Source: a virus
Taxonomy: Duplodnaviria; Heunggongvirae; Uroviricota; Caudoviricetes
Virus record (IMG/VR): IMGVR_UViG_3300033494_000001
Reading direction: 5' to 3' (one strand)
Length of the DNA stretch: 64,000 bases
Part shown: positions 6,276-8,757 of the stretch, one piece after another
Layout of the letters: the number at the start of each line of letters is the position of its first letter
How positions within the stretch are numbered: the first letter of the stretch is position 1
Notes under the pieces: model-generated
Told to the model about the DNA's origin: nothing
Database searches by the model: none
Seen by the model: the letters and a program-made list of their open reading frames with translations, nothing else
Program-made: the position numbers and the translations under genes

Positions 6276-6626
6276 TTAGCCTTCATTATATTCGTCAATT
6301 TTCTCGACTACATATTGTAAATCATTATCTATCAACATACTATCAAAACATCCCATTGGAGTTTTAGCAGTAGTTGTACCATCAGATTGAGTTATAAATT
6401 TATGTGATATTCCACCTTCAAGTTCATTGATAAGTGTAGTAAATAATACATAAGTAAATAAACCCTCAACAGTAATCATGTTGTCAATCATTTTTCCTAA
6501 TGTTTTTAATTTATAGGAAGGGTTGAGTGCATCCCCTATGTTTTCGGAATGTGCTAATACACATACCTTTAAGTCATTTCTCATGCCCATAGATTCTTTC
6601 AATACTGAATAGAAGTTATTTGCCAT
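6276..6626 (-). CDS. Sak4-like (AAA_24) P-loop ATPase, 3' exon (sensor region)
   Basis: VCVLAHSE sensor-like segment; reading frame stays open upstream of the annotated Met back to ~6690; likely the C-terminal half of the ATPase whose N-terminus is at 8461-8757. Confidence 0.5.
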   Translation of the reverse strand: MANNFYSVLKESMGMRNDLKVCVLAHSENIGDALNPSYKLKTLGKMIDNMITVEGLFTYVLFTTLINELEGGISHKFITQSDGTTTAKTPMGCFDSMLIDNDLQYVVEKIDEYNEG

Positions 6627-6705
6627 TTGAGTAAATTTCTCATCAATTGTGTTAATCTGCGTATAAACGCAACTCTTTATGTTTCCATAAAGTTCAGACT
6701 ATATC

Positions 6706-7287
6706 TTAATTTTTAGTTCTTCTTATTCCTTTTGGAATAGTTAAAGCTTCAATAGGTTCCCACTTATGTTTAAAGATTCTATTGTTAACTAATTCAAATT
6801 CCATATTATAGAATTCACACCATTGTTTAAGAGTTTTAGATTCTTCTCCAATAGATATTAATTTTTTAAATGGATCTTGTTGTATAGCTTCTTCAAAAGA
6901 TAAACCACTTCTATAAATTCTTTGATAAAGTGTTGTATATTTAATATTCAATTCTTTAGCCCAGTCTTTTAATACCATAGTTTTATCCTTATAAGTAACA
7001 ATATCGTTAAAATCTTCCCGATTTTTACTTTGGTCTTCTCTATTTGCCCATATACAATTTTCTTTAGAATAATCCTTGAGATTATCAAGTCTTTCTAAAG
7101 TAAATCCTATAGGACAATTTCCCATATCTGAATAAAAAGTTTCAAAAGAATTTTTCCAATCATTGCTGACTTGAATATTATTCTCTTTATACTTTCCTTT
7201 TGTTGCCGAGGGTGAATAACATCTAGATTTCATAGATTTCCATTGTGTATATTCCGGCATTTTGCTTTTTCCTTTAATTTTTTCCAT
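6706..7287 (-). CDS. HNH/AP2-type homing endonuclease (intron-encoded)
   Basis: NCIWANREDQSKNR nuclease-like segment plus C-terminal DWAKELNIKYTTLYQRIYRSGLSFEEAI helix-turn-helix typical of phage intron endonucleases; lies between R and S elements of the downstream intron core. Confidence 0.55.
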   Translation of the reverse strand: MEKIKGKSKMPEYTQWKSMKSRCYSPSATKGKYKENNIQVSNDWKNSFETFYSDMGNCPIGFTLERLDNLKDYSKENCIWANREDQSKNREDFNDIVTYKDKTMVLKDWAKELNIKYTTLYQRIYRSGLSFEEAIQQDPFKKLISIGEESKTLKQWCEFYNMEFELVNNRIFKHKWEPIEALTIPKGIRRTKN

Positions 7288-7976
7288 ATGCTATTTTGTT
7301 AAATTATAATTTACAAAGATAGCGAATAATTTTTATAAAAATTCCAACCATTTCCAAAAAAGTTATAAATAGCTTTAATGTACTCCCCTTCACGGAGATA
7401 GTCGTTGAACTTTCTTCCAATTTTATTTTGGAAGCTTAGCTGCGGATTGTCCAATTCTTTTTTATTTTACCATACCTTTCATAATTAGTGAAAGCCACAA
7501 TGTATATTACTATCATTGCTTGGTTAAAAAGACTCTAAGGATATCCCCGTCAATTAGATTGGTTTGGGCATGTTCTATTACCCTTTTTCAGAGGATCTTT
7601 CCATAGCTTCAAACATTTATATTCAATAGTGCTCGTTAAACACTACCCGCTACTTAGCTGCTGTATATTCCTATACAGATTAGACTATATCATCATCTTA
7701 ATTAAGATGTTTGGCGCTTCCACTCACTTGAGTGTACTCTCTTTCGAGATAGTCGTTGCACCTTCCCTTTACAGGGCTTGGCTCAGGATTGTCCTTTGAA
7801 TTGCTCATTTCGGAGTTTCCCTGAATTCACCAAATTTGCTAACAGTTATTACTAACTGTAGGGCCTTTGAAATTTTGATCGTATGATCAATAAGAACCTT
7901 TATATAATTTACCACTTGCTAAAGCTCTGTTAATTCCCTTATCAGCACCTCCAGGTTTTATTCCAAATTCTACAGC

Positions 7977-8489
7977 TCACGCTTCAATGTTTGGTTTAAT
8001 TCCTTCATAAGTATTAATAATTTCAAATAAACTATTAAAACGATATATAGTTTTATATCGTTTCTTTAAATTCTCAGGGTCTGCATAATATTTTTTATTA
8101 GCTTCTGATAATTTAATTTTAGTTTCTTCAGTTGGAATATGAGTTAAAACATCTCGTTCTTTATTATAAACGGGTTGTAATAAATCAATATAATATTGTT
8201 CTCTTAAATATTGTTCATCTATATTACAGATTTCTACAATTAATAAATTAAAACATTTTTCTCCATACTTATTATAAGCATTTTGTAAATGTTCATTTTT
8301 ATGAACTCCTTTTCGAAGTTCATTTCTATGTTTGTAAAATCTTTGTTGAATGTTTTTAGAACTTCCTAAATAAAAATCTGCATCATTGCAAATAATTTTA
8401 TAAATTCCGCATACATTCTTATACTGTAACATGGATTCACTAAAATTCATTTCAATCCTTTCAAGCCATAATATATTGAGCATCCTCAA
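7977..8489 (-). CDS. GIY-YIG homing endonuclease (intron-encoded)
   Basis: GIYKIICNDADFYLGSSKNIQQRFYKH matches the GIY...YIG...R..H motif; overlaps the end of ATPase exon 1. Confidence 0.8.
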   Translation of the reverse strand: MRMLNILWLERIEMNFSESMLQYKNVCGIYKIICNDADFYLGSSKNIQQRFYKHRNELRKGVHKNEHLQNAYNKYGEKCFNLLIVEICNIDEQYLREQYYIDLLQPVYNKERDVLTHIPTEETKIKLSEANKKYYADPENLKKRYKTIYRFNSLFEIINTYEGIKPNIEA

Positions 8490-8757
8490 TAACTACTACT
8501 TTGATCTCTGGTCTTTGTTTGTCAATCATTTTTAAAATTTGTAGAATCTGCGCAGTATTTGCGGTATTGTACAGATTGCCCACAAACTTTTTAGATGTAG
8601 GGTCTTGCGTTAAAGGAGTATAACTCTTTTTCCAACCTTTAAATGGTAATGGTTTACCCGCTACATTTATAATAAAAGTTGTCTTTGGATTTAGATTCCT
8701 CATTGAAGTAGATTTGCCACTTCCTGCATTGCCTACGACTCCAATTAAGTCTGCCAT
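8461..8757 (-). CDS. Sak4-like (AAA_24) P-loop ATPase, 5' exon (Walker A/B)
   Basis: Walker A GNAGSGKST and Walker B VVVIED; ORF terminates right where the GIY-YIG ORF begins. Confidence 0.6.
   Translation of the reverse strand: MADLIGVVGNAGSGKSTSMRNLNPKTTFIINVAGKPLPFKGWKKSYTPLTQDPTSKKFVGNLYNTANTAQILQILKMIDKQRPEIKVVVIEDAQYIMA

Follow-up and report, generated by a model that had tools for sequence, protein, structure and literature searches.

A phage Sak4-like ATPase gene interrupted by two separate group I introns 34 nucleotides apart

We analysed a 64,000-nucleotide (nt) stretch of DNA from a Caudoviricetes virus (IMG/VR record IMGVR_UViG_3300033494_000001; hereafter the window), in which a gene for a Sak4-like ATPase lies in pieces between positions 8757 and 6276. 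All long open reading frames (ORFs) of the window are on the minus strand, to which all feature coordinates in the window refer. The ORF listing gave four at the locus: a 98-amino-acid (aa) ORF with the Walker A and Walker B motifs (8757-8461), a GIY-YIG ORF (8489/8450-7977), a 193-aa ORF (7287-6706) and a 116-aa ORF (6626-6276). We read the two outer ORFs as parts of one phage recombination-ATPase gene that is interrupted by two separate group I introns 34 nt apart, each with its own nuclease-type ORF, and assign this reading a probability of about 0.93.

A homologue search with the two outer ORFs joined returned more than 1,000 proteins, the close ones uniformly about 231 aa long and 19 residues longer than the query. 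Uninterrupted homologues such as P0001 read ...EDAQYIMA/FEAMERSSEKG/YEKFTQMANNF..., and translation of the window located the middle peptide in a 34-nt micro-exon (TTTGAAGCTATGGAAAGATCCTCTGAAAAAGGGT, 7613-7580), in which 7613-7581 codes for FEAMERSSEKG and the last base is the first of the Tyr110 codon. Two introns around a micro-exon had been one of two arrangements considered in a first-pass annotation of this DNA, and this is the one that the homologues bear out. Because group I introns are preceded by U and have G as their last base, the boundaries could be fixed: the 5′ splice sites lie after U8464 (intron 1) and U7580 (intron 2), and the last intron bases are G7614 and G6644. Exon 1, placed by homologue alignment and by DNA alignment to an intron-less relative described below, occupies 8757-8464 (294 nt, codons 1-98, ending in ATGGCT); intron 1 occupies 8463-7614 (850 nt), intron 2 occupies 7579-6644 (936 nt), and exon 3 occupies 6643-6276 (368 nt, from the last two bases of codon 110 to codon 231 and the TAA stop). 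The exon limits given earlier were those of the ORFs and had to be moved, exon 1 ending at 8464 with the TGA at 8463-8461 intronic, and exon 3 starting 17 nt ahead of the ATG at 6626, at position 6643. The predicted junctions are ATGGCT/TTTGAAG between exon 1 and the micro-exon and AAAGGGT/ATGAGAAA (GGGT/ATGA) between the micro-exon and exon 3; splicing would remove 1,786 nt, and the joined coding sequence (CDS) is 696 nt long, in frame, and encodes 231 aa.

A scan of viral contigs returned 45 loci (designated by L numbers), and the spliced protein was re-mapped on all of them. One of them, L001 (IMGVR_UViG_3300033562_000614), aligned to window positions 12709-5633 with 98.5-100% DNA identity and lacked exactly 8463-7614 and 7579-6644, so that the micro-exon sequence there runs directly into the exons on either side. 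Between this uninterrupted CDS and the spliced CDS of the window, 4 of 696 bases differ, all silently, and the two 231-aa proteins are 100% identical; exon 3 is 100% identical at the DNA level. All four possible states were found among the alleles. No intron was present in L001-L023, L025, L046 and others, only the site-1 intron in L026, only the site-2 intron in L028, L031, L034-36, L040 and L041, and both introns in the window, L027 and L037-39. The introns are thus independent of each other. In a second matched pair, L003 (empty) and L027 (both introns), the exons are identical in sequence around the two sites.

Two of the four differences between the window and L001 adjoin the insertion sites. 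Exon 1 ends in T in the window and in C in L001, and the penultimate base of the micro-exon, which pairs with the intron 2 guide, is G in the window and A in L001. Alleles that bear intron 1 always have T at -1 (GCT), and those without it have GCC, GCG, GCA, AGT or TCC, and also GCT; the GGA/GGG difference is seen again between L013 (empty) and L034 (occupied), which form an independent pair. These site-adjacent differences fit co-conversion or selection for P1 pairing, although the upstream background divergence of 1.5% means that the window/L001 differences taken alone could be due to chance. In most pairs of alleles the introns share 84-88% nucleotide identity and the flanking exons 62-80%; higher conservation of introns than of exons is the usual signature of horizontal spread, which it suggests here. 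The identity to L001 also changes at the intron pair, being 100% in the 1,011 nt that lie downstream of these sites (5633-6643) and 98.5-98.6% over 4 kb upstream (8460-12709), a step that is as expected if nuclease sites mark recombination boundaries (compare PMC10448857). Within the otherwise 98.6% identical upstream region, L001 lacks a 256-nt segment (10558-10813) that contains a small ORF (10556-10810).

The spliced protein matched phrog_2872 'Sak4-like ssDNA annealing protein' (E 4e-61, residues 1-230) and Pfam AAA_24 (PF13479) with 27.5 bits against a cut-off of 27 (profile positions 6-193 of 195), in line with the earlier assignment of the gene to this family. Exon 1 alone scored 16.8 bits, under the AAA_24 cut-off, and the threshold was passed only once the exons were spliced. 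Walker A (GNAGSGKS) and Walker B (VVVIED) are both in exon 1, and the intron sites fall just past Walker B in the most conserved stretch of the gene. By these matches the host gene of this large uncultivated phage is classed as a Sak4-like core-only RecA-fold ATPase, with a predicted recombination or annealing activity.

The Rfam group I intron model RF00028 matched intron 1 over its full length (7902-7661, minus strand; 110.3 bits, gathering score 50, E 9e-28, model positions 1-253 of 253), in agreement with the first of the two group I cores proposed in the first-pass annotation, and the Q-, R- and S-like elements named there for both cores are all in place. In intron 1 these are the R-like GGTGCAACGACTATCTC at 7762-7746, the S-like GATGATATAGTCTAAT at about 7697-7678 and the Q-like GGACAATCCTGAGCCAAG at 7795-7777. 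The structures of both introns were drawn by hand from the window sequence and the Rfam alignment, and pairs were counted on alignments of natural copies, with pairing partners slid by 1-3 columns as controls. Among five copies of intron 1 (alignment A3), the 80 pairs had 98% of cells paired, a percentage that hand drawing inflates, and double changes, which it does not inflate, were found in 21 pairs compared with at most one in the slid controls. The catalytic core (7861-7614) comprises P2 with a GUAA loop, P3, P4, P5, P6/P6a, P7, P7.1, P7.2, P8, P9, a truncated P9.1, P9.2 and the terminal G; P2, P3, P6a, P7.1, P7.2, P8, P9 and P9.2 covary. Directly 5′ of P2 lies a candidate guide, CAAAGGCC (CAAA-GGCC, 7869-7862), whose GGCC pairs with the exon 1 end GGCU to form P1, with a U.G wobble at the splice site, and whose CAAA pairs with the UUUG that opens the micro-exon to form P10. 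A by-eye search near the 5′ splice site for a local P1 found no guide with a G opposite U8464, and the distal CAAAGGCC was adopted for this reason. Because this guide is about 600 nt from the 5′ splice site, the GIY-YIG ORF is located within the P1 loop. Just 5′ of the guide, a conserved hairpin (UUGAUC/GAUCAA, 7890-7875) holds the second TGA of the endonuclease ORF and shows one compensatory change, A-U to G-C, in L026.

For intron 2, which the first-pass annotation had proposed as the second core, RF00028 gave two collinear partial matches with the ORF between them when laxer thresholds were applied to 6000-9000. The first, at 7558-7372 (35.5 bits, E 1e-6, model positions 54-153), covers P3 to the 5′ strand of P7, and the second, at 6709-6677 (27 bits, E 4e-4, model positions 219-251), covers J8/7, P7′ and P9. 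Together with the full-length match to intron 1, these matches far exceed chance expectation. The R-like GTTCAACGACTATCTCC lies at 7410-7394, the S-like TTAAGATATAGTCTGAA at 6709-6693 and the Q-like GGACAATCCGCAGCTAAGC at 7452-7434. Among eight copies (alignment A2), the 83 hand-drawn pairs had 97% of cells paired, and double changes were found in 23 pairs compared with at most two in the slid controls. The 5′ part of the core (7562-7337) comprises P3, P4, P5 with a P5a/b/c extension of about 90 nt, P6/P6a, the 5′ strand of P7, P7.1, P7.2, P3′ and the 5′ strand of P8, with P2 absent; P3, P5, P5a, P5b, P6, P6a and P7.2 covary, and P7.1 does not. The 3′ part (6714-6644) comprises the 3′ strand of P8 (AAAAAUU), J8/7, P7′, P9 with a GAAA loop, P9.1 and the terminal G, and both P9 and P9.1 covary. 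The guide, CAU-GCCC (7572-7566), pairs through GCCC with the micro-exon end GGGU (P1) and through CAU with the exon 3 start AUG (P10), and each pairing shows a compensatory change, GGAU/GUCC in L041 for P1 and CGU/ACG in L031 for P10.

The P8 pairing of intron 2 (AAUUUUU/AAAAAUU) closes over the 193-aa ORF and is nearly universal, with one unpaired cell in L031; the ORF is therefore a P8 insertion, as had been proposed, and its stop (TAA, 6708-6706), said earlier to overlap the S element, does overlap the J8/7-P7′ segment. The stretch just before the ORF start (7343-7290) offers an alternative in some copies, where the 5′ strand of P8 can pair locally into the hairpin AAUUUUUAUAAAAAUU. We rejected this hairpin as P8, since it is missing in L031 and L041, whereas the AAAAAUU near the end of the ORF takes part in the long-range pairing in nearly all copies. 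Downstream of the local hairpin comes a second one of 10 bp, GCUAUCUUUGU...ACAAAAUAGC, which contains a TATAAT-like motif and ends 3 nt before the ORF ATG; this could be a signal that controls expression of the intron 2 ORF.

Covariation demonstrates the ribozyme folds of both introns, and the presence of P7.1 and P7.2 between P7 and P3′ in both places them in subgroup IA. The R and S elements of the two cores had been described as near-identical; the cores share only the universally conserved core segments, one of 42 nt with 79% and one of 39 nt with 74% identity, and are otherwise built differently. Tandem duplication of one intron was considered and rejected: P2, the P5 extension and the ORF position differ, and only the conserved core segments are common.

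The GIY-YIG homing-endonuclease ORF of intron 1 extends from the ATG at 8450 to 7887, and its first-pass assignment was confirmed by matches to Pfam PF01541 (44.6 bits, cut-off 22.6) and TIGR01453 'group I intron endonuclease' (68.9 bits, cut-off 56.05). An in-frame TGA (7979-7977) takes the place of the Trp158 codon. As a stop it gives a 157-aa product; decoded as Trp, it gives 187 aa ending at the TGA at 7889-7887, and the ORF of the window is intact only in the latter case. Codon 158 is TGG in L037 and L038, the following 28 codons are conserved, and members of the corresponding protein cluster are 187 aa long and named 'group I intron endonuclease'. The TGA variant is common to three diverged hosts.

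The 193-aa ORF of intron 2 (7287-6706) was modelled by AlphaFold2 with a predicted local distance difference test score (pLDDT) of 90, and combines a nuclease-like N-terminal domain with two C-terminal strand-strand-helix-helix modules that resemble DNA-binding modules. The HNH/AP2 label of the first-pass annotation was not upheld. The protein matched phrog_3377 'HNH endonuclease' (E 2.5e-48), and the HNH label comes from this PHROG family name only; searches of Pfam (no HNH match even at E 1), NCBIfam and PDB sequences gave no meaningful match, the Pfam AP2 profile did not match, and an alignment of 44 homologues contained no invariant or nearly invariant His. The residues conserved in that alignment are R66, D68, Y73, N77, C78, W80, Q86 and N89. 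A Foldseek search of the PDB with the model returned no significant match and a weak fold match to PacI, and GenBank annotates a related intron ORF as PacI-like. We consider the protein to be a putative, uncharacterised homing endonuclease, possibly of a PacI-like family.

The use of TGA for Trp is unevenly distributed in the window. The intron 1 GIY-YIG ORF and the nuclease-type ORFs of a tRNA island use only TGA for Trp, and about 90 other ORFs, including the replication genes, use only TGG. The 193-aa ORF has TGG six times and TGA never, and the site-2 ORFs of L027, L028 and L031 have one TGA each at a different Trp codon (A2 columns ~357, 637 and 549), where other copies have TGG. Reassignment across the replication genes was also considered and rejected: Trp in the host genes of the relatives is encoded by TGG, and TGA for Trp is confined to endonuclease ORFs. 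TGA serves as the stop of 3 of 41 long ORFs. Exact code-4 translations of window ORFs are present in a public protein collection (P0241, P0361, P0377 and P0382; from a 168,911-bp JGI/ENA contig), which shows that genetic code 4 was used for gene calling on the source contig; code 11 was used for a 52-kb contig that carries the same genes. Within the 64-kb window, no TGA-suppressor tRNA with a clean UCA anticodon was found.

Further insertions were observed in this gene and next to it. The Sak4-like gene of L047 (JBMDUZ010000001.1, 166 kb) has, besides the site-2 intron, a third insertion at 4742-5732, after Gly159 (KTLG/KMID), which follows U, ends in G, has R-like GTAACGACTATCC and S-like GAAGATATAGTC elements and carries a GIY-YIG ORF in which Trp is encoded by both TGA and TGG. 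An Rfam scan of L047 3300-6000 with E up to 0.1 returned nothing, despite 81% identity of this stretch to window intron 2, which is probably a filter effect. L047 (GCA_053580305.1) has the same phage gene order and was deposited within a 'Candidatus Saccharimonadaceae bacterium' metagenome-assembled genome, which means either that phage DNA was mis-binned or that the deposit hints at the host. The gene upstream of the Sak4-like gene encodes a DnaB-like helicase, whose nearest named relatives are helicases of crAss-like and Cellulophaga phages with about 25% identity. It is uninterrupted in the window. In L037 this gene contains two more RF00028 matches (1293-1542 and 2021-2257; 56 and 78 bits), and in L046 (~1044-2427) and L002 (219-1634) it has an insert of about 1.4 kb at the equivalent of window position ~9095, with a LAGLIDADG_2 ORF in the L046 insert. 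In this phage clade the replication module is a hot spot for introns. The contigs of the relatives are 166-213 kb long, and a near-identity search of GenBank phages with 6200-8800 found no related phage; the matches covered only 4-6% and lay in the 3′ half of the intron 1 core.

We weighed three other explanations of the locus. Two cores of the same orientation within 1.8 kb could be a twintron, the second arrangement considered in the first-pass annotation, in which one group I intron lies within another, the inner one is removed first and no coding sequence lies between them. However, the 34 nt between the cores code for 11 conserved residues in frame with both exons, and a separate guide, -1 U and terminal G can be assigned to each intron. 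Moreover, each intron occurs alone in some relatives, at site 1 in L026 and at site 2 in, for example, L028, L031, L034 and L041, and these single-intron alleles refute the twintron, to which we give practically no weight. It might also be supposed that the double intron is a regulatory device, with the micro-exon sometimes skipped by joining the 5′ site of intron 1 to the 3′ site of intron 2. Exon skipping has been documented for phage group I introns, in the SIOphi terminase gene (PMC11878797), and is in the title of a Twort paper cited there. Here, loss of 34 nt, a length not divisible by 3, would change the reading frame and yield a truncated Walker A/B fragment; the P10 guide CAAA of intron 1 complements the UUUG of the micro-exon and not the AUGA of exon 3, and the sequence holds no sign of regulation. 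As intron-less alleles are common, the introns are dispensable, which argues against a regulatory role, and we regard it as very improbable.

The third explanation is a decaying locus, in which one or both introns or the endonuclease genes are non-functional, the host gene is a pseudogene or makes little product and the introns persist by vertical descent only. The in-frame TGA of the GIY-YIG ORF, a 6-nt deletion in P9.1 of intron 1, the lack of a canonical HNH histidine in the 193-aa ORF and the single TGA at a Trp codon in each of the HNH-like ORFs of L027, L028 and L031 would all fit such decay. Set against this, all core helices are intact in the window copies, with 97-98% of cells paired across copies, and the exon product is 100% identical to the protein of the intron-less allele. 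The endonuclease ORFs have no frameshift, TAA or TAG, and their in-frame stops are confined to TGA at Trp positions. Code 4 was used to call the source contig, TGA for Trp in intron endonucleases of TGA-recoded phages has been published (bioRxiv 10.1101/2021.08.26.457843), and the GIY-YIG TGA variant is shared by three diverged hosts. Decay is accordingly a highly unlikely account of the locus.

Several observations weigh against two functional mobile introns, our preferred reading. Splicing is a prediction from structure and alleles. As a single match, intron 2 is below the RF00028 gathering score; the model cannot bridge the ORF of about 600 nt in P8, and the sub-threshold score is for this reason not evidence against the fold. 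The P1 and P10 pairings of intron 1 are 100% paired and invariant in 5/5 copies and hence show no covariation, and the proposed long-range P1 rests on complementarity and canonical position. The 6-nt deletion in the window copy of intron 1 destroys a peripheral P9.1 hairpin that is present in relatives. Under the standard code, the in-frame TGA would cut the last 29 residues from the GIY-YIG ORF. The nuclease activity of the 193-aa protein is putative, given that it has neither a conserved His nor a significant match to a solved nuclease. Finally, between the window and L031 the intron is not more conserved than the exons.

The td, nrdB and nrdD/sunY introns of T4 belong to subgroup IA2 and are associated with the GIY-YIG endonucleases I-TevI and I-TevII, and the intron ORFs of T4 are located in P6 or P9.1. 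The locus described here resembles them in its IA-type introns with P7.1/P7.2, its insertion in a conserved region of a DNA-metabolism gene and its GIY-YIG ORF in a peripheral loop. It differs in the Sak4-like host gene, in the P1-loop position of the intron 1 ORF and in the two introns 34 nt apart, and no DNA similarity of the locus to T4 was detectable. The 3′ half of the intron 1 core (7617-7766) has 79-85% identity to the DNA polymerase introns of many T7-like phages (Autographiviridae), among them Providencia PS3, Acinetobacter APK32 and Pectobacterium PPWS1. The annotated polymerase CDS of PS3 is a join that leaves out an endonuclease ORF, which lies 5′ of the matched core just as the ORF of intron 1 does, but the T7-like polymerase introns carry HNH ORFs in this position and intron 1 carries a GIY-YIG ORF in a different host gene. 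A shared core with a different nuclease and host gene indicates that ribozyme and nuclease gene were combined independently. The 5′ core of intron 2 is 70-74% similar to introns of SIOphi-like Bacillus phages, PhiPA3 and the crAss-like cr271_1.

Several group I introns per gene have been reported for the DNA polymerase, terminase and ribonucleotide reductase genes of Bastillevirinae, as have a short exon separating a pair of introns of the phiNIT1 ribonucleotide reductase gene and exon skipping in the SIOphi terminase gene (PMC11878797). Twort orf142 has three introns, with exon skipping in the title of the Twort paper as cited in PMC11878797. Compared with these cases, the host gene and the lineage are different, and the 34-nt exon and the four states were here derived from natural alleles rather than from cDNA. 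In Bacillus phage 0305phi8-36, a group I intron that encodes I-Bth0305I interrupts recA (PMC3239194). That intron is likewise a mobile intron in a phage recombination gene of the RecA superfamily with an endonuclease family that was unrecognised until it was studied; it differs in being a single intron, in recA, with an endonuclease of another family. In the TGA-recoded Agate phages, an early gene holds a group I intron whose endonuclease uses TGA for Trp in preference to TGG, and this was proposed to delay production of the endonuclease to late infection (bioRxiv 10.1101/2021.08.26.457843). The window shares with them code-4 calling, rare TGA stops, TGG-only replication genes and TGA-only Trp in the intron 1 GIY-YIG ORF and the nuclease-type ORFs of the tRNA island, and differs in having no suppressor tRNA within 64 kb and a TGG-only 193-aa ORF; the likeness is one of codon use. 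Multiple introns per phage gene, small internal exons and intron endonucleases with TGA for Trp have already been published. Our literature search found no paper on an intron in a Sak4-like gene.

Elsewhere in the window, about 20 tRNA genes lie over 24.8-42.3 kb, besides a tmRNA gene at 46453-46788 (minus; RF00023, 66.4 bits; ARAGORN tag peptide GETKVITMVARRSSMRLAA). Five ORFs of the tRNA island lack TGG and contain 2-5 in-frame TGA codons at Trp-like positions. They are located at 26730-27167 (canonical HNH motif, by reading), 28904-29299 (PD-(D/E)xK-like, by motif reading only), 30671-31327 (GIY-YIG, 1.2e-10), 41348-41908 (HNH_2, 6.5e-9) and 39628-40404 (signal-peptide-like N-terminus); the HNH, GIY-YIG and HNH_2 families or motifs of three of them are typical of homing endonucleases. 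Three odd tRNA-like genes (48143-48217, 52877-52951 and 36096-36180, minus), none with a clean UCA anticodon, were also observed. One folds into a well-formed cloverleaf whose anticodon loop has 8 nt (UUCAGGGA), for which ARAGORN gives the anticodon as 'cagg'; another has an anticodon loop of 4 to 6 nt; and the third, 85 nt long with a long variable arm and the anticodon UGG, was matched by Rfam and missed by default ARAGORN.

We propose that the locus would be transcribed as one precursor, from which each ribozyme, judging by its structure, would fold and excise itself. In intron 1, the 5′ site would be chosen by the GGCU/GGCC pairing and the 3′ site aligned by CAAA with the first four bases of the micro-exon. 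In intron 2, the last four bases of the micro-exon (GGGU) would pair with the GCCC 10 nt downstream, and CAU with the AUG at exon 3. As the two sets of pairings are at opposite ends of the micro-exon, the two reactions could run independently, and ligation would restore the 231-aa reading frame. Each nuclease, an I-TevI-type GIY-YIG protein for intron 1 and the 193-aa nuclease-like protein with tandem DNA-binding modules for intron 2, would presumably cut intron-less alleles in a mixed infection, and repair would copy the intron in, a homing process suggested by the distribution of alleles; we infer the nuclease activities and their target sites from sequence. A more speculative reading, and in our estimate a rather doubtful one, starts from the spacing of 34 bp between the sites, by which the recognition site of each endonuclease would probably span the insertion site of the other; the two elements may then interfere with or depend on each other in homing, and the GIY-YIG ORF, if translatable only with TGA as Trp, may be confined in its expression to late infection in a recoded phage. 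If this were true, the alleles with none, either or both introns, together with the third site in L047, would constitute a system for studying selfish-intron conflict under code-gated expression.

Standard gene callers yield from this locus unrelated-looking fragments of 98 aa and 116 aa and lose 17 codons, with all of the micro-exon among them; only splicing recovers the correct product of 231 aa. Although it involves no new mechanism, the locus is a natural case of two different mobile introns within one short conserved stretch, represented by matched genomes that differ by about 1% or less, and would be useful for the study of homing, marker co-conversion and endonuclease timing in TGA-recoded phages.

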